Part shown: positions 1 to 19,771 of the stretch, piece by piece
Layout of the letters: every line of letters starts with the position of its first letter
How positions within the stretch are numbered: the first letter of the stretch is position 1
Source: Candidatus Bathyarchaeia archaeon
GTDB lineage: Archaea > Thermoproteota > Bathyarchaeia > Bathyarchaeales > Bathycorpusculaceae
Direction of reading: 5' to 3'
Assembly: GCA_038883715.1 (NCBI GenBank)
Contig: JAVZLS010000018.1
Location: forward strand, 1-19,891
Length of the DNA: 19,891 nt
Position numbers and translations under genes: made by a program
Notes under the pieces: generated by a model
The model's input: only the letters and a program-made list of their open reading frames with translations
Database searches by the model: none
Told to the model about the DNA's origin: nothing

Positions 1-2027
1 TTGAAGTTGCCCACAAAACCGCTGACTTCAACGACTTCTGCGCCCAAATAGACGTGGATAAGCTTGTTCTCCATAACAGCCTTAACAAGCCTCTTCAAGT
101 GCTTTTGCGGGTCTTCACCCTCAAGCAAATAATAGATTTTCCTCAAGTGTCCGCCAAGCTCTTTTTCGCGTTCTACCAAGTGAACCTCAAAGCCTTGATT
201 AGCCAACTCCAGTGCTGCAGTCATCCCTGAAACGCCGCCGCCGATAACGAGGGCTACTGGAGTGACGTTTACGGTCGGGTTCTTCAATGGCTTTAAGAGT
301 CTTGCCTTTGCAACAACTGAGCGGACAAGGTCTTTGGCTTTTTCCGTTGCCTCTTCTGGCTCGTGCATGTGAACCCAGCTGCACTGGTCTCGGATGTTTG
401 CCATCTCAAAAAGGTAGGGGTTTAATCCGGCCTCGCGGACGGTTTCGCGGAAAAGCGGCTCGTGGGTTCTGGGCGTGCATGAAGCCACAACAACACGATT
501 TAGGTTGTACTCCTTAATCTTCTCCCTAATCCGCTTTTGAGTGTCATCTGAACAGGTGTAAAGGTTTTCTTCAGCATAAACAACGGTTGGAAGCTTCTTA
601 GCGTATTCAACAACTTCTGGAACGCGCACTATGCCGCCGATGTTTATGCCACAGTGGCATATGAAAACTCCTATGCGGGGTTCCTCTTGGCTTACGTCCC
701 TTTCAGGCGGGTACTCCTTAGCAGCAATAAGTTTGCCACGTTCGGGAGCGATTATTGCCATGGCCTTTGCTGCGGCGCCACTTGCTTGGGCAACGCTTTC
801 CGGAATGTCCTTCGGCGAACTGAAGGCTCCGCAAACAAATATGCCGGGCTTCGAGGTTTCCAAGGGTGTGAAGGCGTTGGTTTCGCAGAAACGGTACTTG
901 TTAAGCTTTATCCCAAGCGCTTTAGCCAGTTTCTCCACATCTTTTGGCGGCTGCATGCCCGTGGATAATACAACCATGTCGAATTCTTCAATTCTCGGAG
1001 TCTCATCCTCGCCAACATAATGGACAAGCAGATTGCCAGTTGCTGGGTCCTCTGTTATGCTTGCAACCCTTGAACGAACAAAGCGTATGCCATACTCCTC
1101 CTGGGCACGCTTATAGTAGGCGTCAAACTCCTTCCCATAAGCCCTTATGTCCATGTAGAAAATTGTGCAGTCCAGCTTTGTCGGCACATGCTCCTTGGCT
1201 ATGATGGCTTCTTTAATGCTGTACATACAACAAGCGGCAGAACAATAATTGTTTCCAAGCTGGGCATCCCGCGAACCAACACACTGGACGAAGGCAATTT
1301 TCCGCGGAATCTCGCCGTCTGAAGGTCTCAAAACAACTCCGCCATATGGCCCGGAAGCGCTTAGGATACGCTCAAACTCTATGCTCGTCACAACATTTGC
1401 GTATCGCCCATAACCATATTCACTTTTCAACCGCGCATCAAAAGGTTCAAATCCCGGAGCCAGAATCACCGCGCCAACATTTAACATTATTTCGCTGTCC
1501 TTCTGGTCATATTCAACGGCGTTCGCCTTACAAACCTCTTGGCATGTCCTACAACCGATGCATTTTTCTCGGTCTATCTTGAAGCGTAGCGGAACCGCTT
1601 GCGGAAATTCCACGTATACGGCGCTTCTGTCCGTCAAACCCTTATTGTAGGTGTCTATGGCTTCAACTGGGCATTTTTGTGCACAAAGACCGCAACCGTT
1701 GCATTTCTCTTCGTTTATGTAGCGGCTTCTTTTTCGAATCTTCACTTCGAAGTTTCCAGCCTCGCCTTTCAAGTCCAAAACTTCGCTGTTCGTAATCAAC
1801 GAGATGTTAGGATGCCTCCCAGCAGCAACAAGCTTAGGAGCCAAAATGCACATGGAACAATCGTTTGTCGGGAAAGTCTTGTCAAGCTGAGCCATAACGC
1901 CGCCAATACTGGGCGACTGATCAACCATATACACCTTAAAGCCAGAATCCGCCAAGTCCAAAGCAGCCTGTATCCCAGCAACGCCGCCGCCGACGACCAG
2001 CACTGCGCCAACCTTTCCTTCAGCCAT
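1..2027 (-). CDS. hdrA: Large tandem heterodisulfide reductase subunit A family protein (HdrA/HdrL-type), 3' end truncated by the window edge
   Basis: Not in the ORF track because there is no stop in the window. Hand translation from ATG 2027 is open for 675 codons to base 3: MAEGKVGAVLVVGGGVAGIQAALDLA (FAD Rossmann), DKTFPTNDCSMCI, CNGCGLCAQKCP and CIGCRTCQEVC (2x[4Fe-4S]), QCVGSRD, YCSAACCMYSIK, PKDIPESV, then IGVFICHCG...YTCS...VASCTPRTHE...IRDQCSWVH and a second ALVIGGGVSGMTAALELA. GGAGGTG SD just upstream. Confidence 0.95.
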   Translation of the reverse strand, partial: MAEGKVGAVLVVGGGVAGIQAALDLADSGFKVYMVDQSPSIGGVMAQLDKTFPTNDCSMCILAPKLVAAGRHPNISLITNSEVLDLKGEAGNFEVKIRKRSRYINEEKCNGCGLCAQKCPVEAIDTYNKGLTDRSAVYVEFPQAVPLRFKIDREKCIGCRTCQEVCKANAVEYDQKDSEIMLNVGAVILAPGFEPFDARLKSEYGYGRYANVVTSIEFERILSASGPYGGVVLRPSDGEIPRKIAFVQCVGSRDAQLGNNYCSAACCMYSIKEAIIAKEHVPTKLDCTIFYMDIRAYGKEFDAYYKRAQEEYGIRFVRSRVASITEDPATGNLLVHYVGEDETPRIEEFDMVVLSTGMQPPKDVEKLAKALGIKLNKYRFCETNAFTPLETSKPGIFVCGAFSSPKDIPESVAQASGAAAKAMAIIAPERGKLIAAKEYPPERDVSQEEPRIGVFICHCGINIGGIVRVPEVVEYAKKLPTVVYAEENLYTCSDDTQKRIREKIKEYNLNRVVVASCTPRTHEPLFRETVREAGLNPYLFEMANIRDQCSWVHMHEPEEATEKAKDLVRSVVAKARLLKPLKNPTVNVTPVALVIGGGVSGMTAALELANQGFEVHLVEREKELGGHLRKIYYLLEGEDPQKHLKRLVKAVMENKLIHVYLGAEVVEVSGFVGNF

Positions 2028-2029
2028 CT

Positions 2030-2773
2030 TTATCGCACCTCCAAAGCCTTATACAAAGGCGTATAACCTTCAACATGGTCTAGGGCTATCATGCCCTTCC
2101 GCCTCATGTTCGTTATATGCCTCAAAACAGCAGAAGGCTTTATCCCGAGAATTTGGGCTAACTCCTTAACAGAGCGGGGCTTAATCCTCGCCAAGTGGTG
2201 GATTTTGTAGCGGATGAACTCAGCCCTAACAATATCATCTAATAGGGCGTCAAACTCCGTTTCTGGGATTTTCTCGCCATAAGCGTTCATAAATTCGGTT
2301 AGCTCTTCCTCTCTTCCAAGTAAAACGCGAAGCCTAAAGGCTGAAGCCGCCTCCTTAGCTGCTGTGAGATTGGCTACAATCTCCTCTTTGCTGAGCGGAG
2401 AATTTCCAAGCTTCCAAACCTCTTCGGAGAACACTTTGGCGTAGTGACTGAAGCTTTTGTCTTCTAACGGTGAGACTAACAGGAGCTTCAGTCGTTCAGG
2501 CTCAAGTCCAGCCAATGCCAGCAACTTCTTCAACATTTTAACGGCGCGTTCAGCATGGAGGTTGCCATCAACAAAGTGGCAGTCTGGAGGCTTACACCCA
2601 ACAAGCAACACGCCTTCAGCCCCATTGACAAAAGTTTCCAGAACCAGCGCTGGGTCCATTCTTCCAACACACATAACGCGGATAACATTAACATTGTAAG
2701 GAACACGCAGCTCTTCTTCGCAGAAGGCCCAATTACACATGAAACAAACAATTTTTGGAGGGTTAGACTCCAT
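2030..2773 (-). CDS. mvhD: MvhD/FlpD-type [2Fe-2S] protein fused to a C-terminal ArsR-like winged helix-turn-helix
   Basis: N-terminal CNW...IRVMCVGR...GVLLVGCKPPDCHF...GLEPERL is the MvhD signature. C-terminal RYKIHHLARIKPRSVKELAQILGIKPSAVLRHITNMRRKGMI...GYTPLY fits a wHTH pattern. Confidence 0.85.
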   Translation of the reverse strand: MESNPPKIVCFMCNWAFCEEELRVPYNVNVIRVMCVGRMDPALVLETFVNGAEGVLLVGCKPPDCHFVDGNLHAERAVKMLKKLLALAGLEPERLKLLLVSPLEDKSFSHYAKVFSEEVWKLGNSPLSKEEIVANLTAAKEAASAFRLRVLLGREEELTEFMNAYGEKIPETEFDALLDDIVRAEFIRYKIHHLARIKPRSVKELAQILGIKPSAVLRHITNMRRKGMIALDHVEGYTPLYKALEVR

Positions 2774-2780
2774 TTCTATT

Positions 2781-4496
2781 TCACCTCTCCAAGGCTGTTA
2801 AAACCATTGTGAGAATTTGCTCGTTGGAAAGCTTCTTCATAATTATGGCTCTTTCTGGACAACGTGCCGCACAAAGCCCACAGCCCTTGCAAAGGTCTTC
2901 ATTTACTTGGGCTACACCCTTCTCGTTCTTTTTGATGGCGCCAACTGGGCAGATAACTGCGCAGACATTGCAGCCCACGCATTTGCCCTCATCCACAGCA
3001 GCCTTGTCACCCTCACACAAGTCCATGTTTGCGAGGCACTCCGCACATGGTCCACAACCCAGACAGCGGAAAGCTTCAAACCTTGCTTGACGCTTTAGCT
3101 TTTCAAGATACTCCCTTGCCTCTTCAAAACTTAGGTGGGGCTTCTCTATTGGAGCGTCGTATCGGCGCTCTTTCTTGTCCAGCAACCGCCAGTCCTTAAC
3201 CCACGTGGTTTCCTCAATCTTCTCTTCTTCCCTATCCTTCCGCAGGTCCTCGCCCCTCAAATAACGGTGTATGGAAACCGCTGCACGTTTACCAGCACCA
3301 ACAGCCTCAATGATGCTCGCCGGACCAGTGGCAACATCCCCACCAGCAAAAATCCCCGGAACATTAGTTTCCAATGTCATGGGGTCCACTTGCAGTGGTG
3401 GTCCCCGCTTCTCTTTGCTTATAAGCTCGGGCGGCAAAACAGACGTTTCAACAATCTGTCCAAGAGCCGGGATGACCATGTCCACCTCATATTGATGTTC
3501 TGAAAAGGCAATCGGTATTGGGCGTCTTCTCCCAGTTTCATCAGGCTCGCCCAAGCGCATTCTCAAGCATTCAACAGCCTTAACCCGCCCATTTTCGCCT
3601 ATAATCTGCTTAGGAGCCACCAAGAAATAGAACTTTATCCCATCCTTCTCGGCAAGCTCCACTTCGTGGGGTAGCGCCGGCATCTCCTCGCGAGAACGCC
3701 TATATAGAATTATAACCTCCTTGGCGCCAAGCTTCTTAGCCATTCTTGCAGCGTCTATGGCTGTGTTGCCGCCACCAATAACGGCTACTCTTTCGCCAAC
3801 AGTTATTTTCTTGCCCAGAGCTATGGCCCTTAAAAAGTCTACAGCGTTTATTACGCCTTCTAAGTCTTCGCCTGGCACGTTTAACTTCATGCCCAATTGT
3901 GTGCCAATGGCAAAGAAAATTGCCTTATAACCATCCTTCTTAAGGCTTTCAATGGTTATGTCCTTGCCGAACTCAATGCCAGTTCTAATTTCAACGCCTA
4001 TATCCTTAATGTAGGCTATTTCATTTTCAACAACAAATTTTTCTAGGCGGAAGTCTGGTATGCAATAGCGCATCATGCCGCCAGGCTCAGCCATCCGCTC
4101 AAAAACAGTAACCGGATAACCCAGCTTCGCAAGTTCATAAGCCGCTGTCAAACCAGCTGGTCCAGCACCTATTATGGCTATTCTCTCGCTGTACTTCTTT
4201 GGCACTGGCTCAGCAACAACTCTTCCTTGTTCGCGTTCGATGTCTGCCACGAGCCTCTTTAAGGCGCGTATAGCCACCGCCTGGTCAAGGTTTACCCTTG
4301 CGCATGCATCTTCGCATGGGCTGAAGCAAACCCTTCCACAGATGGCGGGGAAGGGCATGTCCCGCCTTATGACTTCAACAGCTTCCTTAAACTTGCCTCT
4401 CTGGATAAGAGCCACATAAGCTTGAACGTTCACATGTGCTGGACATGCTGCTCGACAAGGAGGTAATTTCCTAACCTCTTGTAATGGCTTTTCCAT
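2781..4496 (-). CDS. GltD/NfnB-like FAD-dependent NAD(P)H oxidoreductase with C-terminal 2x[4Fe-4S] ferredoxin domain
   Basis: PPCRAACP...CGRVCFSPCEDAC Fe-S motifs; IIGAGPAGL (FAD); VIGGGNTAID and YRRS (NADPH-type site); FAGGD; RCLGCGPCAEC; CVGCNVCAVICP and CKGCGLCAARCP. Start is ATG 4496 (AGGCTGA SD-like upstream) or ATG 4523 as in the ORF track. Confidence 0.88.
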   Translation of the reverse strand: MEKPLQEVRKLPPCRAACPAHVNVQAYVALIQRGKFKEAVEVIRRDMPFPAICGRVCFSPCEDACARVNLDQAVAIRALKRLVADIEREQGRVVAEPVPKKYSERIAIIGAGPAGLTAAYELAKLGYPVTVFERMAEPGGMMRYCIPDFRLEKFVVENEIAYIKDIGVEIRTGIEFGKDITIESLKKDGYKAIFFAIGTQLGMKLNVPGEDLEGVINAVDFLRAIALGKKITVGERVAVIGGGNTAIDAARMAKKLGAKEVIILYRRSREEMPALPHEVELAEKDGIKFYFLVAPKQIIGENGRVKAVECLRMRLGEPDETGRRRPIPIAFSEHQYEVDMVIPALGQIVETSVLPPELISKEKRGPPLQVDPMTLETNVPGIFAGGDVATGPASIIEAVGAGKRAAVSIHRYLRGEDLRKDREEEKIEETTWVKDWRLLDKKERRYDAPIEKPHLSFEEAREYLEKLKRQARFEAFRCLGCGPCAECLANMDLCEGDKAAVDEGKCVGCNVCAVICPVGAIKKNEKGVAQVNEDLCKGCGLCAARCPERAIIMKKLSNEQILTMVLTALER

Positions 4497-4540
4497 CAAG
4501 GTTATCAGCCTTCTTAGAAGCATATTTGAATGTTAAACCA

Positions 4541-4601
4541 GATATATTAAGCCATCTAAACCAAACTTAACACAAAATTAACATAAAATTTCAACATAAA
4601 A
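4541..4601 (-). promoter_or_regulatory. Putative promoter of the oxidoreductase-mvhD::HTH-hdrA operon with upstream ~11-bp periodic repeats
   Basis: TTAATATATC on the minus strand at 4541-4550 (TATA-like). Upstream of it lie AAACCAAACTT (4558), AACACAAAATT (4569), AACATAAAATT (4580) and AACATAAAA (4593), given on the plus strand. Confidence 0.45.
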
Positions 4602-4620
4602 AGAGGGGAAATAGAGGGTT

Positions 4621-5211
4621 TTATTCGCGAAGTCTTCCTTCGAGTTTGCTAACCCACTTGTTATATTCCCTAGAGCTTAGAAGGCTTTTGAGCTCCTCCT
4701 CAAGCGTCAAGGAGTTTTTGGGCTTGATCTCGACTATCCAGCCCTCGCCATATGGATCTTCGTTTACTAAGTAAGGCTTATCCTTCAATTTTTCGTTAAC
4801 CTTAACAATTTTGCCGCTTACGGGCGCGTATAAATCAAACATAAACATCCAAGTTTCAGCCACACCAAAGGGCTCCATTTTGGCAACTTCCTTCCCAACG
4901 GGTTCGGTCATTATGTTTGCAATGCCTTTAAGGTGCCTCTGGGCGTAGTCTGAAACACCCACACGGATGTTTCCTTCAGAAGTTATTTGCGCCCATGTGT
5001 GCTTCGGCGTGTACAGTAACTGCTCCGGAATAGCCAAAAGCTCTTCACGTTTTGCGGCTGGAATTCCCTCAGCCCGCATTAGCTCTTCTAAGCGCAGCCT
5101 TATGGCTTCTGAGACAAATTCTGATATGCTTCTGTATCGTCCTGTTCTTAGTAGTCTCTCGATTTCTTTTATTAGCTCTTGCCTTATGCTTACGGTTTTC
5201 CATTCAGACAT
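4621..5211 (-). CDS. Ribbon-helix-helix (CopG-like) DNA-binding domain fused to a glycine-cleavage H-protein-like domain lacking the lipoyl lysine
   Basis: N-terminal WKTVSIRQELIKEIERLLRTGRYRSISEFVSEAIRLRLE is an RHH pattern. C-terminal LLYTPKHTW...VGVSDYAQ...LYAPVSGKIVKVN...VNEDPYGEGWIVEIK is the GcvH fold. GGAGGTTGA SD upstream. Confidence 0.88.
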   Translation of the reverse strand: MSEWKTVSIRQELIKEIERLLRTGRYRSISEFVSEAIRLRLEELMRAEGIPAAKREELLAIPEQLLYTPKHTWAQITSEGNIRVGVSDYAQRHLKGIANIMTEPVGKEVAKMEPFGVAETWMFMFDLYAPVSGKIVKVNEKLKDKPYLVNEDPYGEGWIVEIKPKNSLTLEEELKSLLSSREYNKWVSKLEGRLRE

Positions 5212-5337
5212 TTCACATCAACCTCCTTTACATCTGCGTGATATATAGAGCAAAGCGAAAAATATATATCTAACGTAAATAGAAAATATAGAATAAATAA
5301 ATGTGTTAAAGTAAATACTATAAATAGAGGGAAGCCT
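5212..5337. promoter_or_regulatory. AT-rich divergent promoter region between the RHH-GcvH gene and the PhoU-family regulator
   Basis: 126-bp intergenic region between divergent genes, with several TATA-like tracts (ATATATAG, AATATATATC, TATAAATA). Confidence 0.6.
5275..5289 (+). repeat. 15-bp motif GTAAATAGAAAATAT, copy 1
   Basis: Exact match to 13615-13629. Both copies are intergenic, in the same orientation, upstream of minus-strand genes. Confidence 0.75.
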
Positions 5338-6411
5338 TTGGAAATTAGAAAAGTTCAAAGAGTAGGCCACTCAACAATGACCGTTTCGCTTCCAAACGAG
5401 TGGATTAAAGAACAAGGCATAAAGCCGCGAGACCTCCTATTCATAATGCCAGAAAGGGACGGCTCCCTAAAAATAATGCCAAGGCACGTAGCCCAAAAAG
5501 AGGAAGCCGAAGAATACATTGTCAATGCAGATGCATGCGACGAGCCGGGAATGCTTGAAAGAATAATTGTTGGAAGCTACATTCTCGGGCGAGATGTCAT
5601 AAGGGTAATCTCAACAAGCCGCATAGGCAAAAACCACATAGACGAAGTTCGAAGAATAGTTCAAAAACTTATTGGGTTGGGCATCCTTGAAGAGACTCCC
5701 AAAAGCATACTCTTGCAGTGCTCCATAGACTCCACGAAGTTTAAGCTCGACATGCTCATACGGAGGCTTGCCCTAATAGCTTCAACAATACTTTCTGAGG
5801 CTATGCAGGGCTTTAAGGAGAAAAAATATGACATTGTGGAGGAAGCCATAGCCAGAGAAGACGAGGCCGATAAAATCTACTATTTGGCGGTGCGTCTGCT
5901 TCTTTCCGCGCAAGTAAAACCAGCCATAGCCGAAGAGGTCGGCATGGTGGACGTACTTTTTATACCTGCTGCAAGGCTGATTCTGCAGTATTTGGAGCTG
6001 GTAGCAGATTATTCCGAGGACTTAGCCAAGGAGGTTCTTGAAATGGAGATTTACAGAAATAGGCTTCCAGAGGATGTTGTTGACAGAATATTCCATTTAA
6101 GCGAGCTAACCCAGACAATTCTTCAGAAGGCTATTGAGTGCATCTTCACAAGGGATTTGAAGGTTGCAAACCAGCTTCTGGAAATGAGAAAGGTGCTTGA
6201 GGTGGACTCGAATAGGCTTATGAGGGAAGCTCCAGAAATCCCCTATGTAAGGTCTATTCTCTCCTGCCTAAGCAAGATTGCCGACAAAGGCGCCACAATA
6301 GCTGAAATAGCCATAAACAGAGCCTTAGAAGATCCGAGTAAGTATGTTGGCGATGTTGTCCGGGCAGTTAAGCATGTTAGAACTCTGCCATTGACTATTG
6401 GAAAGAAATAG
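5338..6411 (+). CDS. Archaeal PhoU-family regulator with N-terminal AbrB/SpoVT-like DNA-binding domain
   Basis: MEIRKVQRVGHSTMTVSLPNEWIKEQGIKPRD (AbrB-like N-terminus typical of archaeal phosphate uptake regulators); two PhoU helical repeats (REDEADKIY...LELVADYSEDLA; LSKIADKGATIAE). TTG start. Confidence 0.85.
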   Translation: MEIRKVQRVGHSTMTVSLPNEWIKEQGIKPRDLLFIMPERDGSLKIMPRHVAQKEEAEEYIVNADACDEPGMLERIIVGSYILGRDVIRVISTSRIGKNHIDEVRRIVQKLIGLGILEETPKSILLQCSIDSTKFKLDMLIRRLALIASTILSEAMQGFKEKKYDIVEEAIAREDEADKIYYLAVRLLLSAQVKPAIAEEVGMVDVLFIPAARLILQYLELVADYSEDLAKEVLEMEIYRNRLPEDVVDRIFHLSELTQTILQKAIECIFTRDLKVANQLLEMRKVLEVDSNRLMREAPEIPYVRSILSCLSKIADKGATIAEIAINRALEDPSKYVGDVVRAVKHVRTLPLTIGKK

Positions 6412-7270: not shown

Positions 7271-8146
7271 TCAGCCTATTTTTTCTAAAACTTTGTCGAT
7301 TTTTATCTTGTGGAAGTCTAGTGCGAGTTCTTTTGGTTCCACTCCTAGGCTTAGGCTTAACAGCTCGGCGTAGTGGATTATTGGCATGTTGTACTCTTCC
7401 TTGTAGGTGGTTTTTATCAGCATTTGTCCAAGGTCTAGGGTTAGGAAGCAGAAGGGACACAGTGTTGATATGCAGTCTGCCCCAGCGTTGTAGGCGTTTA
7501 CAATTTTGTCTCTTGCTATGGCTAGCGCCACGTCGTCTGCATAGCCTCTTAGGAGTCCTCCACAGCATCGCAGCTTATTCTTATATGGTATGCTTTTGGC
7601 TCCCAAAGCCTCTATCAGGGTGTCGAATATGCGGGGGCGTTCCGGATCATCAAAGCGTAGGAGTTCGCTTGGGCGTAGTAGGTGGCATCCTGAAAAGGCA
7701 GCTACCTTAAGATTGTTTAACGGTTTGACGATGCTTTGTCTTAAGCGGTTTACGCCTATATCGTTCATTAAGACCTGTAGGTAATGCTTAACCTCTTTTA
7801 TGCCTTTAAACTCCTTGCCAGTGTTGGCCAAAATCTTATTGACCTTTTCACGCAGTTCCGGCTTTTCTTTTAATAGGCGATTTGCAATTGTTAGGGATTC
7901 AAAGCATCCAGTGCAAAGCGTGAGTATGTTTAGATCTGCTTCTTCCGCTAGGCAAATGTTGTAGGCGGCTATTGCCAAGCTTGTTTCCAAGTCTATTGAC
8001 TGAAGCGGTGGTGGTGCGCAACACGTTGCGCCTTCCATGTCCACAAGTTCTATTCCAAGCTTTGTTAGGGCTTTTCTTGCTGCGAGTTCGTAGTGGGGCT
8101 GGCGGGCTGGTATTGTGCAGCCCAAAAATAGGGCGTAGCTTGTCAT
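7271..8146 (-). CDS. hdrB: Heterodisulfide reductase subunit B family (two CCG domains)
   Basis: FLGCTIP...TCCAP...TLCTGCF and GCHLLRP...CCGG...LCPFCF. ATGA overlap with hdrC. Confidence 0.93.
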   Translation of the reverse strand: MTSYALFLGCTIPARQPHYELAARKALTKLGIELVDMEGATCCAPPPLQSIDLETSLAIAAYNICLAEEADLNILTLCTGCFESLTIANRLLKEKPELREKVNKILANTGKEFKGIKEVKHYLQVLMNDIGVNRLRQSIVKPLNNLKVAAFSGCHLLRPSELLRFDDPERPRIFDTLIEALGAKSIPYKNKLRCCGGLLRGYADDVALAIARDKIVNAYNAGADCISTLCPFCFLTLDLGQMLIKTTYKEEYNMPIIHYAELLSLSLGVEPKELALDFHKIKIDKVLEKIG

Positions 8147-8649
8147 TGTGGTGCACCTTCTTTCTTAAACATGAGTTTGTCAAAACCTCTTGCCGCCAGA
8201 ATCTTTTTAATGGCTTCTATACCCGTCGGCTTTAGCGGTGGCAAGCCGTATTCAGCCCTTTTCTTTTCTAGGAATTTTGATATTGGGGCTAGGCGTCCTT
8301 CGCTCATGAGTCCCGTGGCGAATTCTGTGTATATGGCTGGTATGTTGCCTTCTCGGATGGCTATATTTCTTAAGGCGTATATCACGTCTGCAATCTCGAC
8401 TTTTTGTGGGCAGCGTTCTTGGCAGTTGTAGCATGAGGCGCAAAGCCATATAGCGTCGCCTTTTAGAACCTCGTCTCTCTGTCCCAGTAGGGCTAGTCTT
8501 ATTATTTGGCGGGGGTTGTAGCGCTCGGTTGTTCTTGCGACTGGGCATGTGCTGGCGCATGTGCCGCACTGGTAGCAGCGGGTTATTGTCTCTCCGCCAA
8601 GTCTGCTGGTTATTTCCCTTGCAAAATCACGGAGTTTTTCTTCAGCCAT
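8143..8649 (-). CDS. hdrC: Heterodisulfide reductase subunit C
   Basis: CYQCGTCASTCP and WLCASCYNCQERCPQ. Likely start ATG 8649 after GGGTGAG; alternative GTG 8658. Confidence 0.93.
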   Translation of the reverse strand: MAEEKLRDFAREITSRLGGETITRCYQCGTCASTCPVARTTERYNPRQIIRLALLGQRDEVLKGDAIWLCASCYNCQERCPQKVEIADVIYALRNIAIREGNIPAIYTEFATGLMSEGRLAPISKFLEKKRAEYGLPPLKPTGIEAIKKILAARGFDKLMFKKEGAPQ

Positions 8650-8682
8650 CTTGCTCACCCTTTTTGGAGTGTTCGCTTTAAG

Positions 8683-11103
8683 CTAGGCGAGTTGAAGTGA
8701 GCCTAGCCTTTCCACTTTTTCGGTCATGGCTTTGGCTGCTTCTGCGAATTTGTCGCCTTCTATGAAGACTAGGTTGAACATTTCGAGTCTTTCCGGTTCT
8801 ATGCCATAGGCTTGGAGAAGCGTCTTTGCCATTTCCACCTTTCTTTGGGCTTTTTGACTTCCAACCTCGTAGTGGCATCCGTCAGGCTTGCACCCCACCA
8901 CCATAACGCCTTGGGCTCCAGCCTTAAAGGCTTCGAGAATATGCTGAACTTGGATTATGCCCGTGCATGGAACTCGTAGTACTCTAACGTTGGCTGGGTA
9001 GCTCATCATAGCCATTCCAGAAGAGTCTATTGCTGCGTGGCCACATTCTGAACAGCTGAAAGCAAGAACAAGCGGCTTTGAAGTGCCATTAATAGACAAC
9101 AGCGCCTTTATTTGGGCCGATATTTGACTTGGCTTTAAGTGGCGAAGCTCTATGGCGCCCACTGGGCATGTGCCAACACATACTCCGCAGCCCTCGCATA
9201 AAAGTTCTGAAACCTTAGCCACAAAGTGGCCGTCGCCCTTCGGCTCAAGAGTTATGGCGTTGTATGGGCATGTTACTGGGCAGAACTGGCAATTGCCACA
9301 ATAATCCTCGTTTACAACGGCCACCTTCAAGTCCTTGACTATTTTGCCATTCATAAGGAATTTGGCTGCCTTAACAGCCGCTGAATGGGCATGGAGCGAA
9401 GCTGTTGGGGCATCCTTCGGGAAGACGGCGCCTCCACATATGAATATGCCTCTCCGCTTTGTTTCAGTAGGCCTAAGCTTGGCGTTATACTCCTTAAAGA
9501 AACCGTCTTGGTCCAATTCTATGCCTAGGATTTTCGCCAGCTCCTTTGCGTCTTCAGATGGAACCATGGCTGTGGCTAAAACCACTAGGTCTGCTTCCAA
9601 TTCCAAGAGCCTTCTTAAAAGCTCGTCTTCAACCTCAACAATCAGTGTGTTTGTGGCTGGGTCGTGGATTATTTCGGACGGCCTTCCCTTAACGAATTTT
9701 ATGCCCATTTCCCTTGCTTTCTCATAATAATATTCGTGTTCCCTGCCTGTTGTTCGGATGTCTATGTAGCATATGGTCACGTCGGCGTCTGGATAAGTCT
9801 CTTTAATCAGTGTGGCGTGCTTCAGCGAAATCATACAGCAAATACTCGAGCAGTAGGGGTTCCAGCGTCGGTCCCTTGAGCCTACACACTGCACAAAAAC
9901 AATGCGCTTTGCTGGTTTTCTATCTGAAGGCTTAACTGGCACCCCGCCTGTCGGGCCGAAAGCGTCCAGCATCCTCGCCAATTCCAAATGCGTTATCACG
10001 TCGGGATACTCGCCATAATGATACTCTTTTATGACGCTTGGGTCGTATTCGCGGAAGCCGGTAGCCACAATTATGCTCCCGACGTTAAGTGTCACATGTT
10101 CAGTTTTCTGGTCCAGATTGACGGCTTTTGTTGGGCAAACCTCAACGCATTTGGCGCATTCATGGAACTTGCAGGCTTTGGCGTCTATGGCGTAGGCTGG
10201 CGGGTAAACCAGAGGCCTGTTTATGTAGATTGCTTTCCGCTTTGTGAGCTTGGCGTTATATTCGTCTGGCACTTCGACGGGACAGACGCTTGTACATAGG
10301 TCGCATGCCACACACTTTTTCTCGTCCACATAGCGGGGTTTCCGTTCAACGGTCACCTTGAAGTTCCCCGGGCCTCCCTCAACCTTCACGACTTTAGCGT
10401 TTGTCAAAACACTCAAGTTTGGAATCTCTGAGAAGCCGGAACGGTAAACGCATTTCCTCGATGTTTGGGTCACGGTTTTTAGGTCCGTTGCTGGAGACTG
10501 AATGCATATGGCACAGTCGTCCGTTGGGAAGAAACGGACAGCTTTAGCGGCTAAACCGCCTAAGAAAGGCTCTTTCTCTATCAAGTAGACTTGGAAGCCC
10601 ATGTCCGCCAAGTCTTCGGCTGCCTGCATTCCAGCTATTCCGCCGCCAATAACAAGGATGGATTTGAGGGCTGGGAATTCGGCTTTCTCTATTGGTTCTA
10701 GAAGCTTGGCCTTTTCAATGGCAGCTAGGAGCATTGCCTTAGCCTTTTCAGTAGCCTCTCTCGGCGTGTCCTTGTGGGGCCATGCACAATGGTCCTTTAG
10801 GTCTAAAACCTCCACCAAATGCGGGTTAAGTCCAGCCTCTTCAACAGCTTTCGCGATGGCTATTTCGCTTATTTTTGGTATAGTCTCTGCGACGACGACA
10901 CGGTTTATCTTCTTGGTTTTAATGGCGTCCACCATAGTTTTTAGGCCTTCACCCCGCCAGAACTCGCTTCCCCTAGCGACAAGAGCGACTCCTGGAACAG
11001 TCTTAACAAAGTTTGTTAAGGCTTCAAAATCGAGGATTTTTGCTATTTGCCCACCGCAGTCGGATAGGAAGACTCCAACTTTTGCCTCTTCAACAGTTTT
11101 CAC
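8683..11103 (-). CDS. hdrA: HdrA::MvhD fusion protein (~806 aa)
   Basis: VIGGGIAGMQAA, PTDDCAICI, CVACDLCTSVCP, VQCVGSRD, YCSSICCMISLK, C-terminal 2x[4Fe-4S], then MvhD (FSCSEC...RVPCTG...VGCKPDGCHY...GIEPERL). Start most likely GTG 11103 after AGGAGGG; the 11262 start in the ORF track overlaps mvhA. Confidence 0.92.
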   Translation of the reverse strand: MKTVEEAKVGVFLSDCGGQIAKILDFEALTNFVKTVPGVALVARGSEFWRGEGLKTMVDAIKTKKINRVVVAETIPKISEIAIAKAVEEAGLNPHLVEVLDLKDHCAWPHKDTPREATEKAKAMLLAAIEKAKLLEPIEKAEFPALKSILVIGGGIAGMQAAEDLADMGFQVYLIEKEPFLGGLAAKAVRFFPTDDCAICIQSPATDLKTVTQTSRKCVYRSGFSEIPNLSVLTNAKVVKVEGGPGNFKVTVERKPRYVDEKKCVACDLCTSVCPVEVPDEYNAKLTKRKAIYINRPLVYPPAYAIDAKACKFHECAKCVEVCPTKAVNLDQKTEHVTLNVGSIIVATGFREYDPSVIKEYHYGEYPDVITHLELARMLDAFGPTGGVPVKPSDRKPAKRIVFVQCVGSRDRRWNPYCSSICCMISLKHATLIKETYPDADVTICYIDIRTTGREHEYYYEKAREMGIKFVKGRPSEIIHDPATNTLIVEVEDELLRRLLELEADLVVLATAMVPSEDAKELAKILGIELDQDGFFKEYNAKLRPTETKRRGIFICGGAVFPKDAPTASLHAHSAAVKAAKFLMNGKIVKDLKVAVVNEDYCGNCQFCPVTCPYNAITLEPKGDGHFVAKVSELLCEGCGVCVGTCPVGAIELRHLKPSQISAQIKALLSINGTSKPLVLAFSCSECGHAAIDSSGMAMMSYPANVRVLRVPCTGIIQVQHILEAFKAGAQGVMVVGCKPDGCHYEVGSQKAQRKVEMAKTLLQAYGIEPERLEMFNLVFIEGDKFAEAAKAMTEKVERLGSLQLA

Positions 11104-11134
11104 CCTCGTTTCCCTCCTTTTTCTCCTTACAACT

Positions 11135-12592
11135 TTACCTTTTGATTCTTTGGATGAGCCTTTTCTCGCTGTCATAAATTTCCACCTCCAAAGGCATTTG
11201 GCCAACGGCAAAATGAGTGGCGCATGCGAAACATGGGTCATAAGCCCTAAAGGCCATTTCAATCATGTTTAATATGCCGTCGGTCACTTTGCCCTTCTTG
11301 ATTAAGCCTTTGGCTGCATCCCTAATTGACATGCATATGCCGGGAACATTATGCGTAGTAGCCACAATCAGGTTGACTTTCTTGGCTAGGGCGTTCTCGT
11401 CCAGCTGGTAATGGTGGATAAGCGTTCCACGGGCGGCTTCCACGATGCCCACGCCTTCTCCCGGTTTGCCGGGTTTGTTGCGAATGTTTTTGCTTGTTAT
11501 TTCCGGGTCTGTTACAAGTTCTAGGGCGCGTTCAGCCGCATACAATAATTCAATAAGCCTTGCCCAGTGGTAAGCCAATGTGTTATGAACTGGTTTTCCG
11601 CCTAGTGTGGAGTACATGCGCTCGTATTCGGCTTGGGCTAGGGGTGTTGCCATGCCATCAGCCGCATTAAGTCTTCCAAGAGGACCGACACGGTATACGC
11701 CGTTTTCGGCTCCATCTATGAAGCCTTTCCATCCCACTTTTTTCAGGTATGGAAGTTTAACGTAGGTCCATGGCTCCACACGCTCTTCAATAACGTCCAA
11801 ATACTCTTTAGGTGAGAATTTGACGAATTCGCGTCCGTTGGGGTCTACTACGCGGACGTTTCCGTCGTAGAAGTTTACTTTGTTGTTTTTGTCCACCAAG
11901 CCCATATAGTAGGTTTTGAGCGTGTATGCCTCGCTTTTAATCAGGTCCACGTAGGCGGTGTTTTTCAGAACTATGTCGTCGAAGAGTTTCAGCGAGAACT
12001 TGGCGAATTCTAGGCAGCTTCTTACCATGCGCTCAATTTCTCGGCGCTCTTCTTCTGAGATTGGCCTTGCAAATCCGCCGGGGATGCATGCGCTTACCGG
12101 GTGGGTTGCTTTTCCGCCTAAAATTTCCGTTATTTTTTGGCCATAAGCCCTATGCTTTATAACCTCCTTGCCTATTTCAAGGCCTGCCTTCTCAATGACG
12201 CCTAGAACGTTGCGTTTTTCTGGTGGCGCGTCTGGTCCCACAACAAAGTCGGGGCCGCCAAGATAGTAGAAGTGTAGTGTGTGGTCGTATAGGTAGTAGC
12301 CGCAGTACATAAGCTCGCGGAGTTTTTTAGCTGGCTCTGGCGGTTCAACGTTGAAGGCGGCGTCTAGGGCCTTGGCGCTGGCCATGTGGTGGGCCACTGG
12401 GCATACGCCACATATGCGGGGCGTTATGATGGGCAGATCTTCGGCTCTGCGGCCTTCACAGAATTTTTCGAAGCCGCGGAGTTCCGGGACTTGGAAGTAG
12501 GCTTCGTCCACGTCGCCCTCTTCGTTTAGGAATATGGTTATTTTTCCGTGGCCCTCCAGCCTTGTTATTGGGTTTATAACTATCTCTTTCAT
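11135..12592 (-). CDS. mvhA: [NiFe]-hydrogenase large subunit, MvhA type (group 3c by context)
   Basis: TRLEGHG, RGFEKF, L1 RICGVCPVAH, L2 RAYDPCFACATH followed by a cleavable C-terminal tail; adjacent to hdrA::mvhD. Confidence 0.93.
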   Translation of the reverse strand: MKEIVINPITRLEGHGKITIFLNEEGDVDEAYFQVPELRGFEKFCEGRRAEDLPIITPRICGVCPVAHHMASAKALDAAFNVEPPEPAKKLRELMYCGYYLYDHTLHFYYLGGPDFVVGPDAPPEKRNVLGVIEKAGLEIGKEVIKHRAYGQKITEILGGKATHPVSACIPGGFARPISEEERREIERMVRSCLEFAKFSLKLFDDIVLKNTAYVDLIKSEAYTLKTYYMGLVDKNNKVNFYDGNVRVVDPNGREFVKFSPKEYLDVIEERVEPWTYVKLPYLKKVGWKGFIDGAENGVYRVGPLGRLNAADGMATPLAQAEYERMYSTLGGKPVHNTLAYHWARLIELLYAAERALELVTDPEITSKNIRNKPGKPGEGVGIVEAARGTLIHHYQLDENALAKKVNLIVATTHNVPGICMSIRDAAKGLIKKGKVTDGILNMIEMAFRAYDPCFACATHFAVGQMPLEVEIYDSEKRLIQRIKR

Positions 12593-13539
12593 GGGCGCAT
12601 CACCCTCCTCCTTAGAAGGGAATTAGCCAGAGAATACTTGTAGAAGGTTCCAACAGGGTCAACTACTTGCTGGATGACTTTTGGGTCTGTGGCTATGGAG
12701 GCGAAGGCGCTTATCATGGCTGCGCCTTGGTCTGTCACGCGGGGTGCTGGTCCGCCACACCCGGTGCATGGTATGTTCGCCTTTAGGCATTGGGCGCTGC
12801 ATCCGCCTCTGGTGGCTGGTCCCATGCATATTACGCCTTGGTCTAGGAAGCATGTTTTGTAGTCGTCTTCTATTTCGTAGATTCGTTTTACTTGGGTGAT
12901 TTTGCGGTCTTTCTTTTCTCTTGGGCATTCGTCGCAGACAGACTTGTTGAAGAGGAGGTTTGCACCTTTTGGTGGAAGCTTCCCGCTTAAAATGGCTTCT
13001 AGGGCGTCAATAACCCTTGGCACTGGTGGTGGACAGCCAGAAATGAAGTAGTCTACGTCAACGGTTTGCGCCAAAGTTTTAACGGTGTCATAGAACTCGG
13101 GAAGCTCAAGCTCGCCATGGGGCACTTTAAAACTTGTTTGGGGTGTTACACGCTCGGGATTCCGTGTTGAAGGAGTTTCGAAGTAGGCTCTTTCAAAAAT
13201 TTTCTCTCTATTCCACAAGTTGCCTAAGCCTATTACGCAGCCGTCGCAGGCGCATGAGCCGAAAGCCACAAGCACTTTCGCCTTCTGCCTCAACAGCTTG
13301 GCCATGTATTCTTGTTCGCTGTTTCGGATGGCGCCGTTGAAGAAGCAGACGTTTATGCTTTTGTCGGGCATGGCTTCAACATCCTTATATTTTATGTCCA
13401 TGGCTACGGGCCAAAAAACGATGTCTGCTTTGGCTATTACGTCTAGGATTTTCTCGTTAATGTCTAGAACAGCGATTTCGCATCCGCCACAGCTTGCTGC
13501 CCAATAAAAGGCAAACTTTAGTTTTTTGGGTTTCTCCAT
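12589..13539 (-). CDS. mvhG: [NiFe]-hydrogenase small subunit, MvhG type
   Basis: ASCGGCE, FGSCACDG, SGCPP, VCDECPR, CFLDQGVICMGPATRGGCSAQC...PCTGC. ATG 13539 after GGTGAGGAG; ATGA overlap with mvhA. Confidence 0.93.
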   Translation of the reverse strand: MEKPKKLKFAFYWAASCGGCEIAVLDINEKILDVIAKADIVFWPVAMDIKYKDVEAMPDKSINVCFFNGAIRNSEQEYMAKLLRQKAKVLVAFGSCACDGCVIGLGNLWNREKIFERAYFETPSTRNPERVTPQTSFKVPHGELELPEFYDTVKTLAQTVDVDYFISGCPPPVPRVIDALEAILSGKLPPKGANLLFNKSVCDECPREKKDRKITQVKRIYEIEDDYKTCFLDQGVICMGPATRGGCSAQCLKANIPCTGCGGPAPRVTDQGAAMISAFASIATDPKVIQQVVDPVGTFYKYSLANSLLRRRVMRP

Positions 13540-13563
13540 TCTCCTCACCAGTCATGTATAATT

Positions 13564-13639
13564 TTAATGAAGCTAGATTATTGCAGCTTCTATAATTTAA
13601 ATTTAGCTCATTGAGTAAATAGAAAATATGCTTCATTAA
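13564..13639 (-). promoter_or_regulatory. Putative mvhG operon promoter bracketed by a 10-bp inverted repeat
   Basis: TTAATGAAGC (13564-13573) and GCTTCATTAA (13630-13639) are perfect reverse complements. Between them are a TATA-like TTTAAATTATA (minus strand, ~13591-13601) and the 15-bp motif. Confidence 0.5.
13615..13629 (+). repeat. 15-bp motif GTAAATAGAAAATAT, copy 2
   Basis: Exact match to 5275-5289. Confidence 0.75.
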
Positions 13640-13678
13640 GCTTAATTCAAACTTAAAATAAAATATAGAAGGAGAACG

Positions 13679-16471
13679 CTAACCTGTTGCCGCTTCTTCA
13701 GCCTCTTTACCAGTTCCCTTTTCTACGCCAAGCACCGTTTCTGGAGTTTTCGTCTTTTCTACGGGTTTGATTGGCGGTCCCTCTTCTTTTAGGTTTAGGG
13801 TCCCCCTTATCGTGCCGTCCTCCATATACTTCAGCTGGAAGCCCAAATTTCGCATAAGCTCAATAGCCTTTCGGTTTTCTGGAAGCATTATTCCATAAAT
13901 GCTTTCTAGGCCTCTTTCTCTGCATATTTCTATAACGTAGTCCACGAGCTTTGTTCCTAGGCCTAAGCCTTGCCACGGATCCGCCACCAGAAAGGCTATT
14001 TCGCCTGTTTTTCCGTCTAATTCTATGCTGACTCTGGCTGTTCCAATGATTTTTCTTTTGCCGTTTTCTGTTAGTTCGGCGACTATGGCTATTTCTCGGT
14101 CGTAGTCTATGTTGCAGTAGCGGACCCTAACTTCGTGGGGCATATGCTTAAGGGTCTGGAAAAGCTTGTAGCGGATGGACTCTTCTGAGCAGTTTTTGAA
14201 CATTTCAAGCCACAGTGGCTCGTCTTCGGGTTTTATGGGTCTCAAAAGCACTGTTCTGCCGTCTCGGAGTTTCCACAAAGTTTCATACTTTTTGGGGTAG
14301 GGGCTTATAACCAAGTGTTGGTGGGGTTCCACTTTCCGGAATATGAGTTCTTTGTCTATTATTATGCGAGCGTCTATGGCTATGGCGTCCTTTTCATCCA
14401 CAAGCAGTGGGTTAATGTCAATCTCCTTTATTTGTGGAAAGTCTATTAGCAGATGCGAGAAGAGGACCATAACCTCTTCTAGGCGTTTAATGTTGGCTGG
14501 CGGCATATTCCGGTAACCTTTCAAAAGCTGGTAAACCTTTGTTTCTTCCATCATGCGTCTAGCCAACGTCTGGTTTAGCGGTGGCAAGCCTATGGAGAAG
14601 TCCTTGAAAAGCTCCACGCCTATGCCGCCCATTCCAAACATTATGATTGGACCGAAGACTATGTCCTTCTTTGACCCTAAAATGACCTCATAGCCACGTC
14701 TCTTAATCATCGGCTGAACTGTGACGCCGATTATTTGGGCTTTCGGGTTGTATTTTTTGGCGTTCTTCATTATGGTTCTGAAGGCTTCTCTAACTTCGTC
14801 TTCGCTTTTAATGTCGAGGATTACTCCGCCAGCATCCGTCTTATGAATTATCTGAGGAGAAAGAACCTTCAAGACCACCGGGTAGCCGATTCGCGAGGCA
14901 ATGGCAACGGCCTCATCCTCGTCCTTAGCAATATAGGTTTTCACCACTGGAAAGTTGTAAAACTCCAAAACTTTTTTGGCTTCAAACTCTGTTAGTACTT
15001 CACGGTTTTCAAGCGCTGCGCCCTTCAAAATAGCCAATATAGGAAGCTTAGGCGGAGAAAGGTCGACAGGCAATTCTTCTGGAGTTTCATAGAGCAGTTC
15101 GAGGTTTCGCTTGTACTGGTACATGTAAAGGTAGGTTTTCACCGCTTGCTCTGGAGTGGAGAAGGTTGGAATCTCGTTGGCGTTGAATATGAAGTTCGCC
15201 TCTTCCACAGCCTTCCTACCCATAAAAGACGTTAGGATCGTTTTGCCCCGCTGCCCCTTACTTTTCAAAAGCTCCACTATGCTCTTTGCAATTTCAACGG
15301 GTTCCGCCACTGCTTGAGCCGTGTAAATGATGAGGATTCCGTCAACGTTTTCGTCGTTTAGGCATGCTTCTAAAACGGCTTTGTAGCGGTCGGCTTTGGC
15401 GTCGCCTAAAATGTCTATTGGGTTTCCATGGCTCCAGTATGGCGGAAGAATACTGTTAAGATATTCCATTGTCTGGGGGCTTAGCTTTGCGAGTTTTCCT
15501 CCCATCCCTATGAGGGCGTCGGTAGCCATAACGCCTGGACCGCCAGCATTCGTTATTATTGCAAGGTTTGGGCCTCGGGGTAGTGGTTGCATGCCCAAAA
15601 CTTCGGCGCAGTTGAATAGATCTGCTATTTCTTCTACGCGTACTATTCCGGCACGTTTGAACGCTGCATCATAAACGTCATCCTCGCCTGTAAGCGAACC
15701 CGTGTGCGAGGCGGCTGCCTTTGCGCTTTCGCTGTATTTTCCAGCTTTTACAACGATTATTGGTTTTGTTCTGGCGAAGTGTCTTGCGGCACTCATGAAC
15801 TTGCGGGCGTTTGTTATGCCCTCAATATACATGAGGATGCTTCGCGTTTTGGGGTCTGTTCCAAAATGGTCTATTAAATCGCCGAAGTCCACGTCTATCA
15901 TGGAGCCTACGGAGACGAAGTGGCTGAAGCCAACATTCTCATGAACAGCCCAATCCAATATGGCTGTGCCGAGGGCTCCGCTCTGGCTTATGAAGGCAAT
16001 GTTGCCAGGTCTTGGCATCTTATTAATGAATGTGGCGTTTAGGCGTATACTTGGGCGGATAATTCCCAAACAGTTGGGTCCAATAATGCGTAAATCGTAT
16101 TTTCGCTTTATCTCAAGAATCTTATCCTCGAGGGCTTTGCCTTCTGGACCGGTCTCCTTAAAACCAGCACTTATAATTATTAGCCCTTTTATTCCGGCTC
16201 TGCCGCACTGCTCAACCACGTCCGGAACAGTTTTGGCTGGAGTGGCTATAACCGCCAAATCAACAGTTTTTGGAAGCTGCTCTACGGTTTGGTAGGCTTT
16301 AACGCCTAAAATCTCTTTTTTGCGGATGTTTACTGGGTAAACTTCCCCCTCAAAACCAGACTCAAGAAAGTTTTTCATTAGGGCGTAGCCTACAGAACCT
16401 TCCTCGTCGCTGGCGCCAACAACAGCCACGCTTTTAGGGTTAAAAATCTTGTCAAGATGTAAGGTAACCAA
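13679..16471 (-). CDS. ADP-forming acyl-CoA synthetase (alpha+beta domains) fused to a C-terminal GNAT acetyltransferase (Pat-like architecture)
   Basis: PKSVAVVGAS CoA-binding domain, IIGPNCLG, SQSGALG, AAASHTGSL, TNAGGPG, NPIDILGDA; ATP-grasp GYPVVLK...IIHKTDAGGV, EIDINPL; GNAT LLRPIKPED...VADPWQGLGLGTKL. TTG start. Confidence 0.92.
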   Translation of the reverse strand: MVTLHLDKIFNPKSVAVVGASDEEGSVGYALMKNFLESGFEGEVYPVNIRKKEILGVKAYQTVEQLPKTVDLAVIATPAKTVPDVVEQCGRAGIKGLIIISAGFKETGPEGKALEDKILEIKRKYDLRIIGPNCLGIIRPSIRLNATFINKMPRPGNIAFISQSGALGTAILDWAVHENVGFSHFVSVGSMIDVDFGDLIDHFGTDPKTRSILMYIEGITNARKFMSAARHFARTKPIIVVKAGKYSESAKAAASHTGSLTGEDDVYDAAFKRAGIVRVEEIADLFNCAEVLGMQPLPRGPNLAIITNAGGPGVMATDALIGMGGKLAKLSPQTMEYLNSILPPYWSHGNPIDILGDAKADRYKAVLEACLNDENVDGILIIYTAQAVAEPVEIAKSIVELLKSKGQRGKTILTSFMGRKAVEEANFIFNANEIPTFSTPEQAVKTYLYMYQYKRNLELLYETPEELPVDLSPPKLPILAILKGAALENREVLTEFEAKKVLEFYNFPVVKTYIAKDEDEAVAIASRIGYPVVLKVLSPQIIHKTDAGGVILDIKSEDEVREAFRTIMKNAKKYNPKAQIIGVTVQPMIKRRGYEVILGSKKDIVFGPIIMFGMGGIGVELFKDFSIGLPPLNQTLARRMMEETKVYQLLKGYRNMPPANIKRLEEVMVLFSHLLIDFPQIKEIDINPLLVDEKDAIAIDARIIIDKELIFRKVEPHQHLVISPYPKKYETLWKLRDGRTVLLRPIKPEDEPLWLEMFKNCSEESIRYKLFQTLKHMPHEVRVRYCNIDYDREIAIVAELTENGKRKIIGTARVSIELDGKTGEIAFLVADPWQGLGLGTKLVDYVIEICRERGLESIYGIMLPENRKAIELMRNLGFQLKYMEDGTIRGTLNLKEEGPPIKPVEKTKTPETVLGVEKGTGKEAEEAATG

Positions 16472-16892: not shown

Positions 16893-17246
16893 ATGCCAAT
16901 AGATACTTTTGAGTTATTAGGACTTAAGTCGAGTAAACCTAAAAGGGATTCAAGAAGGGCGTTTACAGCAACCCAAAAGAAGGAAATCCTATATCAGCAA
17001 GACAATAAATGTGCTAGATGCCATAAACCATTAGACCCTAGGGCAACCCATTTCCATCATATTAAGCCTTGGTCTGCTGGTGGAAGGACCATAACTGTCA
17101 ATGGAGCCGCAGTATGTGCAAATTGTCACGAAATCATAACACATAAAGAAAGACTCAAAAAAGTGGATAAGAAAAGAAGAAGAAAAAAGGAATCTGACAT
17201 TTTTGACTTATCTAAAGTAAAATCCCTCAGAGATATTATCTTTTGA
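16893..17246 (+). CDS. Stand-alone HNH endonuclease
   Basis: RRAFTATQKKEILYQQDNKCARC...HFHHIKPWSAGGRTITVNGAAVCANCH: Zn-binding CxxC pairs around an HH...N...H core. Confidence 0.85.
   Translation: MPIDTFELLGLKSSKPKRDSRRAFTATQKKEILYQQDNKCARCHKPLDPRATHFHHIKPWSAGGRTITVNGAAVCANCHEIITHKERLKKVDKKRRRKKESDIFDLSKVKSLRDIIF

Positions 17247-17535: not shown

Positions 17536-19771
<2,236 letters not shown>

Follow-up and report, generated by a model that had tools for sequence, protein, structure and literature searches.

Canonical MvhD proteins of methanogens, as solved in Mvh/Fdh-Hdr complexes (5odc_D, 7bkb_F, 8rvu_F and 9sw2_D), are 129–141 amino acids (aa) long and are encoded beside HdrA. A longer relative, BamF, is treated in an April 2026 bioRxiv preprint on the cryo-electron microscopy (cryo-EM) of class II benzoyl-CoA reductase (BCRII), the available part of which describes it as an MvhD-homologous adaptor that exceeds known MvhDs by more than 100 aa, carries a selenocysteine (Sec19), connects BamGHI to BamE (a fused HdrA dimer) and contacts BamI through a winged helix-turn-helix (wHTH) (10.64898/2026.04.10.717634). 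This preprint was the only source linking the two domains in a full-text literature search for MvhD with "helix-turn-helix" or "winged helix". Here we analyzed an open reading frame (ORF) of similar build, located at 2030..2773 on the minus strand (stop codon at 2030–2032) of a 19,891-base stretch of Candidatus Bathyarchaeia DNA (the window), which makes up the whole of contig C18 in a genome of 1.33 Mb and 90% completeness. Its product, a 247-aa long MvhD, had been taken in the initial annotation as a candidate redox-wired transcription factor for which no characterised example was known; the latter statement is outdated by the cryo-EM work on BamF, as far as the available part of the preprint goes.

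We found that this protein is an ordinary member of the widespread MvhD family and belongs to its BamF-type, long-MvhD subfamily. With a probability of about three in four, it is an electron-transfer adaptor of the BamF type whose wHTH has been reused as a protein-protein interface, and not a transcription factor; the partner of this winged-helix tail is most likely a protein and not DNA.

Three-part architecture of the long MvhD

The ORF starts with an ATG situated 7 bases past the stop codon of the upstream gene and preceded by a Shine-Dalgarno-like stretch (GGAGAGGTGA), contains no in-frame TGA, and ends 2 bases ahead of the start of the downstream HdrA-like gene. An AlphaFold2 model built from 45 diverse homologues had a mean predicted local distance difference test score (pLDDT) of 94.1 and a predicted TM score (pTM) of 0.91. 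In this model the MvhD domain, a helical insert and the wHTH are predicted to form one compact body with a fixed mutual arrangement. The joining of an MvhD domain to a C-terminal wHTH, first read from the sequence, was borne out by Pfam, by this confident model and by structure search.

The MvhD/FlpD domain (aa 8–123; 2405..2752, minus strand) matches PF02662 over profile positions 1–123 of 123, with an expected value (E) of 1.5e-31 and 109.4 bits against a cut-off of 22.3. The N-terminal half of the model matches MvhD 5odh_D in Foldseek (TM 0.80, target-normalised; 38% identity), and the N-terminal 125 aa have their fold and cysteine pattern in common with the solved MvhDs (profile E 2.1e-31). 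All four cysteines expected of an MvhD were present, C13 (CNW), C35 (VMC), C60 (GC) and C65 (DCH), and align with cysteines of 5odc_D; among 45 aligned family members, none lacks C13 or C60, and at least 90% have C35 and C65. We take these residues to be the ligands of a putative [2Fe-2S] cluster, a role known from the solved complexes. The segment following CNW is shortened, as had been noticed, with 6–7 residues fewer than in the solved MvhDs and most family members. The solved canonical MvhDs end where the extension begins, whereas the window protein continues for another 120 aa, made up of the helical insert and the wHTH.

The insert (aa 125–184; 2222..2401, minus strand), delimited by invariant alignment columns, model helices and charge, carries the FRLRVLLGREEELTE..NAYGEK motif and has a net charge of -7. 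Its helices in the AlphaFold2 model span residues 130–143, 146–153, 155–160 and the start of helix 171–197, and F146, R147, R149, G153, R154, E155, N163 and Y165 are invariant in 30 of 30 close homologues. The region (aa ~130–184) had been described as a helical linker; its helical nature holds, whereas the notion of a loose linker does not, as it is conserved like both flanking domains and makes up a subdomain. Since this acidic insert adjoins the wHTH, part of the charge of the latter may be balanced within the protein. The wHTH itself (aa 185–247; 2033..2221, minus strand) has a net charge of +8. Its elements in the model are helix 171–197, helix 202–209, helix 213–225 (the third helix), and strands 229–235 and 238–243, and the last 62 residues modelled alone reached a pLDDT of 92.1.

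Family distribution, gene order and kinship with BamF

A word-indexed search returned 1077 homologues at E <= 0.001, the best 120 of which are all 218–260 aa long and 60–97% identical to the window protein, the close homologues bearing Bathyarchaeia names in public records. The exhaustive search gave 2416 representatives (50%-identity clustering) at the same threshold; many are about 250 aa long and match query residues 5–245 at 28–58% identity. Of 201 sampled Bathyarchaeia genomes, 50 gave a match to the extension alone (aa 125–247); of the 121 high-quality genomes in this sample, 23 did. A cross-phylum scan, with one genome per species and the bacterial member P0163 as query, yielded 79 loci with full-length matches. 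Their titles include Deltaproteobacteria, Syntrophaceae, Dehalococcoidia and Chloroflexota among bacteria, and Bathyarchaeia, Asgard archaea (including the cultured Promethearchaeum syntrophicum MK-D1), Thermoplasmata, Methanomassiliicoccales, Methanophagales/ANME-1 and Halobacteriota among archaea.

In the sampled phylum of a Desulfobacteraceae metagenome-assembled genome (MAG), the full-length profile matched in 77 of 301 genomes at E <= 1e-62, and most of the matches listed carry one in-frame TGA. Selenocysteine-bearing family members turned up in the Desulfobacterota sample, and many members outside Desulfobacterota have Cys at the CNW(U/C) position, so that selenocysteine defines BamF proper and not the wider family. 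Some representatives begin at query Met34, and it was considered that they had been cut by an upstream selenocysteine codon; this was rejected, as 26 of 26 loci read upstream through CNWC without a TGA. In a Desulfobacteraceae MAG (G201:C140), the long MvhD at L134:575-1321 has its in-frame TGA at the position of the cluster residue Cys60 (SGUHFGDCHY), unlike the CNW(U) of bam-type clusters, and judged from the codon this TGA may specify selenocysteine at a putative [2Fe-2S] ligand position.

The gene directly upstream of the long MvhD (2781..4523, minus strand) encodes a 580-aa GltD/NfnB-like FAD/NAD(P)-binding oxidoreductase with an N-terminal Fer4_20 domain and a C-terminal 2x[4Fe-4S] domain (NCBIfam PRK12771, 523.5 bits against a cut-off of 516). 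Directly downstream (3..2027, minus strand) are the first 675 aa of a BamE-like double HdrA, ended by the contig edge, which matches NCBIfam HdrA2 with 808 bits in two stretches and has a second Rossmann motif at aa ~590. The type II HdrA described in the available part of a study of HdrA classification, with two thioredoxin-reductase domains, fits this downstream gene, whereas type III HdrA has an inserted GltD, which in the window is a separate subunit (PMC12054007). The same part of that study reports GltD modules associated with HdrA and mvhADG in Bathyarchaeota and does not mention the long MvhD or its wHTH (PMC12054007).

Synteny was compared in 20 Bathyarchaeia loci with wide flanks. 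An HdrA-like orthologue lies directly downstream of the long MvhD in 19 of them, the exception being L045; in longer contigs this gene encodes about 1000 aa with two HdrA halves and is followed by a short MvhD, HdrC, HdrB, MvhG and MvhA. The immediate upstream neighbour is GltD-like in 9 of these 20, and a further HdrA-like gene takes that place in at least 7. Of 14 loci from other phyla, 11 have the long MvhD next to a double HdrA (945 aa or more; 54–63% identity to that of the window). The rest of the operon (short MvhD, HdrCB, MvhGA) is visible only in relatives, e.g. L036–L038. The contig of the 92%-identical relative G145 (L035, G145:C7:1) stops inside the same HdrA-like gene as does the window (1–3), and these shared ends are probably assembly breaks at paralogous hdrA copies. 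Two consecutive copies of a [long MvhD - double HdrA] unit were seen in L072 and L061 (a Thermoplasmata and a Bathyarchaeota genome), and the Bathyarchaeia locus L040 has two long MvhDs 3.8 kb apart.

These gene orders, with the double HdrA as the constant partner and a GltD-like gene in fewer than half of the Bathyarchaeia loci, would suit a role of the extension that is structural without docking the GltD-like protein: it would steady the MvhD domain on the double HdrA, dimerise the complex, or offer acidic carriers, ferredoxin for example, a basic surface to land on. We regard this as unlikely, since in natural fusions the extension directly precedes a GltD-type module. In P0143 (1227 aa), P0149 (1737 aa), P0158 (1255 aa) and P0190 (574 aa), a FlpD domain plus extension, with the query match running to residue 229–243, is followed in one chain by Fer4_20 and Pyr_redox_2 (GltD-type). 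The same order is found in P0189 (1000 aa), in which the query match runs only to residue 209, and in L122 (Halobacteriota) a 1050-aa fusion of long MvhD and GltD adjoins a 1001-aa double HdrA. HdrA-type domains stand ahead of the FlpD domain in P0122, P0149 and P0158. A further point against a purely structural role is that the wHTH contact reported for BCRII involves the input-module subunit BamI and not BamE, according to the available part of the preprint (10.64898/2026.04.10.717634).

A split form also occurs: at L042:1795-2594 (G184:C9), a 154-aa MvhD ORF overlaps by 4 bases the 112-aa ORF behind it, which comprises insert and wHTH only. Further ORFs of 104–147 aa in the Bathyarchaeia genome sample match the extension alone, several of them near Hdr clusters.

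Since BamF is absent from the PDB entries searched, a BamF-like protein was sought by gene context. Of five large genomes of the sampled Desulfobacteraceae-MAG phylum, three have a divergent AOR on the contig of the long MvhD at a distance of about 5 kb, and a fourth has one 10.7 kb away. At locus L136, an AOR of 669 aa (AFOR_N + AFOR_C) is followed by an ORF of 182 aa, a Fer4+CCG protein of 383 aa and a double HdrA; next come the long MvhD (255 aa, codon 19 being TGA) and then NuoE-like, NuoF-like and Fer2_4+Fer4 proteins of 150, 642 and 200 aa, respectively. By gene content this is the bamBCDEFGHI pattern, and the selenocysteine position read from the codon agrees with that given in the preprint. 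The long MvhD of L136 (P0511) contains FlpD and HTH_5 (34.7 bits) domains and aligns with the window protein in a single segment (window 6–235, P0511 9–249; 30% identity, E 5e-32) that spans all three parts. The HdrA-like protein of the window is 50–55% identical to the HdrA-like proteins of bam-type clusters. On the strength of these alignments, the window gene pair is homologous to BamE/BamF.

Like BamF, the window protein is about 250 aa long, has an MvhD domain continued by some 100 aa of extension with a wHTH at the C-terminus, and is encoded beside a fused double HdrA. The two differ in several respects. BamF has Sec19, whereas the window protein has no selenocysteine, with Ala16 at the CNW(U/C) position and Cys10 and Cys18 nearby; its loop after CNW is shorter by 6–7 residues, and its wHTH is more basic (+8 against +2 to +5 in BamF-type proteins). 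In addition, bam clusters have BamB/C (AOR) and BamGHI (NuoEFG-like), whereas no AFOR, Complex1_51K or 2Fe-2S_thioredx domain was detected in the window ORFs scanned, in which the neighbouring module is the GltD/NfnB-like oxidoreductase; and the operon of the relatives ends in MvhD-HdrCB-MvhGA, unlike a bam cluster. Without AOR- or NuoEFG-like domains in the ORFs scanned, the window protein is a relative of BamF and not a benzoyl-CoA reductase subunit.

The wHTH: protein interface or DNA-binding head

The ArsR-like wHTH fold proposed initially was confirmed by structure comparison. With VIA-align, the C-terminal 62 residues superimpose on PH1932 (2cwe_A) with Z 10.6 and a root-mean-square deviation (rmsd) of 0.8 Å over 61 residues, and on NolR in its DNA complex (4omy_A) with Z 9.7; over the ArsR/SmtB-type repressors SmtB, CzrA, HlyU, NolR and PH1932, which have the wHTH topology in common with the window protein, Z is 9–10.6 and the rmsd 0.8–1.6 Å. 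At aa ~192–230 a set of Pfam winged-helix models matches, of which HTH_5 (25.0 bits, cut-off 22) and HTH_24 (23.9 bits, cut-off 21.9) pass. The third helix carries 'xVLxHI', which resembles the ArsR motif 'xVSxHL'. JGI automatic names for family members are of the form 'F420-reducing hydrogenase delta subunit/biotin operon repressor' or '/predicted transcriptional regulator'.

Fold, Pfam matches and automatic names would be consistent with a moonlighting regulator, i.e. an adaptor subunit that, when free, binds DNA through its basic wHTH with an affinity set by the redox state or occupancy of the [2Fe-2S] cluster, and so autoregulates the hdr/mvh operons. It would then be comparable to PutA and BirA, which combine enzyme and repressor roles in one protein. 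We consider such a role very improbable. The Pfam matches span the HTH core only, and the NCBIfam ArsR/SmtB model (HTH_metalloreg) scores 23.5 bits against a cut-off of 55. A Foldseek search with the C-terminal model alone gave no match at E <= 0.001 (the best, SmtB, at 1.9e-3), so that the clear wHTH matches came from VIA-align. Unlike the ArsR/SmtB repressors, which are free-standing and small, the window wHTH ends a redox subunit, and the AlphaFold2 model packs it rigidly on the MvhD domain. Structural neighbours also include wHTH folds that form protein interfaces and do not bind DNA, namely ESCRT-II (3cuq_B, Z 9.1), the N-terminal domains of O-methyltransferases, and ScpB, which would suit a structural role of the extension.

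Surface charge bears on this question in two ways. In the clade of the window protein the wHTH has a net charge of +6 to +9 and its third helix one of +4 to +5 (+5 in the window protein), and R224 and R225 are nearly invariant. Over 45 members of the family, the net charge of the wHTH spans -6 to +8, and in the two BamF-type proteins it is +2 and +5. Therefore, as far as the aligned sequences go, a basic DNA-binding face is a feature of the clade and not a trait of the family. No clean pattern was seen when wHTH charge was compared with the type of the upstream gene, the loci being mutually related; this lack of sorting is a point in favor of a structural role without a GltD-like partner.

Inverted repeats that might serve as an operator were searched for in three intergenic regions. 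None was found at 4500–4640; at 5190–5360 there was only one AT-rich 8-nt pair (5240–5270), and at 13530–13700 two weak pairs, neither result being convincing. No operator was thus found in these regions. The fusions described above also count against a regulator: a wHTH situated amid oxidoreductases of 1200–1700 aa is hard to square with a free DNA-binding head and easy to square with a structural module. Moreover, the only solved relative reportedly uses its wHTH as a protein interface, as stated in the available part of the preprint (10.64898/2026.04.10.717634).

Apart from the fold and its basic charge, we found nothing in support of the redox-wired transcription factor, and that charge varies over the family. 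The other option raised in the initial annotation, co-option of the wHTH for protein docking, is favored because the module is ancient, widespread and tied to the double HdrA, because it lies internally in fused HdrA-MvhD-GltD polypeptides, because its surface charge is not conserved over the family, and because the window protein is homologous over its full length to a BamF-type protein, BamF being reported, in the part of the preprint available, to touch BamI with its wHTH.

Several points weigh against the docking adaptor. The wHTH is strongly and conservedly basic in the clade of the window protein, two HTH Pfam models exceed their cut-offs, and its best structural neighbours are true DNA-binding repressors, one of them solved on DNA. 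The statement on BamF rests on a preprint that is not peer-reviewed, of which the available part gives BamF 'two Rossmann-fold domains', whereas the window model has one alpha/beta domain followed by helices (10.64898/2026.04.10.717634); BamF coordinates to compare with the model were not among the PDB entries searched. The bam-type label of L136 comes from the genes present there and from the agreement at Sec19, and does not derive from a named record. Finally, the window ORFs scanned include no homologue of BamI, the partner in BCRII, and it is gene order and fusions that suggest the GltD-like protein as partner. A complex prediction for aa 125–247 with the 580-aa GltD-like protein scored 0.00 in two runs carried out without controls, which says nothing either way.

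As a docking adaptor, the protein would work as follows. The [2Fe-2S] cluster of the MvhD domain would relay electrons one at a time into or out of the flavin/Fe-S core of the double HdrA, and the insert and wHTH would form a rigid docking arm that holds a second redox module against this core. The docked module would most likely be the upstream GltD/NfnB-like NAD(P)H oxidoreductase here, and a further HdrA in other operons, so that the window protein probably bridges the upstream GltD/NfnB-like oxidoreductase and the downstream BamE-like HdrA. The short MvhD encoded downstream in relatives may do the classical job of linking the MvhAG hydrogenase. The wHTH would accordingly be a relic DNA-binding fold reused as a protein interface and presumably without a regulatory role. 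A variant confined to the Bathyarchaeial clade, in which an ancestral docking wHTH turned basic and the free long MvhD binds DNA or RNA and conveys to the hdr/mvh operons whether its [2Fe-2S] cluster is oxidised or reduced, seems to us a long shot.

Other genes of the window and wider meaning

Upstream of the GltD-like gene, a 196-aa fusion of a ribbon-helix-helix (RHH) motif and a GcvH-like domain is encoded at 4621–5211 (minus strand; RHH_1, E 0.0018, below cut-off; GcvH-like, E 1.5e-31). It has Met (ETWM) where solved H proteins have the lysine of the ES(V/T)K motif, presumably the lipoylation site. In the window and at 7 of 20 related loci, the gene of this fusion is the immediate upstream neighbour of the GltD-like gene; L041 and L046 have it in duplicate. 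It represents a second case of a DNA-binding fold on a metabolic domain beside the long-MvhD operon. Divergent from it is the gene of a 357-aa protein (5338–6411, plus strand) that has PhoU domains and a weak AbrB/MazE-type match at its N-terminus (E 5e-4, below cut-off). This divergent gene is syntenic in 8 of 20 related loci, and its product is a candidate for a more conventional regulator of the region.

A second, canonical hdr/mvh cluster occupies 7271–13548 on the minus strand and comprises MvhG (12589–13548), MvhA (11135–12592), an HdrA-MvhD fusion, HdrC (8143–8658) and HdrB (7271–8146). The fusion is listed with 859 aa from a TTG at 11262, overlapping mvhA, and its true start is probably further downstream. 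Its MvhD domain sits at the C-terminus of the protein and has no wHTH extension. The genome contains four MvhD domains in all, three of them within ORFs of 805–859 aa.

The remaining features are a 930-aa protein (13679–16471, minus strand) with ADP-forming acyl-CoA synthetase domains (CoA_binding_2, Succ_CoA_lig and ATP-grasp_5) and a C-terminal GNAT acetyltransferase domain, the architecture of Pat-type protein acetyltransferases; a small HNH endonuclease ORF (16893–17246, plus strand); and, at 17536–19771 (minus strand), a 475-aa GltD-type protein (Fer4_20 + Pyr_redox_2) and a 278-aa protein with a DHODB-type Fe-S domain, whose genes overlap by 29 bases. The last two form an NfnAB-like pair that is separate from the GltD-like protein of 580 aa encoded next to the long MvhD.

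A wHTH on an Fe-S subunit is by itself no sign of a redox-sensing regulator, and an attractive but unsupported idea is corrected here; the transcription factor, if true, would be striking. The work also points to residues worth comparing with the BamF coordinates. More broadly, the pairing of a double HdrA with a long MvhD is a module that extends well beyond class II benzoyl-CoA reductase, whose BamE/BamF pair is one instance of it; the module was found in Bathyarchaeia, Asgard archaea, Thermoplasmata, ANME-1, Chloroflexota and Desulfobacterota and combined with differing input modules (GltD-like proteins, further HdrA copies, or MvhAG). For flavin-based electron bifurcation, this offers a concrete hypothesis of how uncultured archaea may join the chemistry of NAD(P)H, H2 and heterodisulfide or ferredoxin in a single complex.

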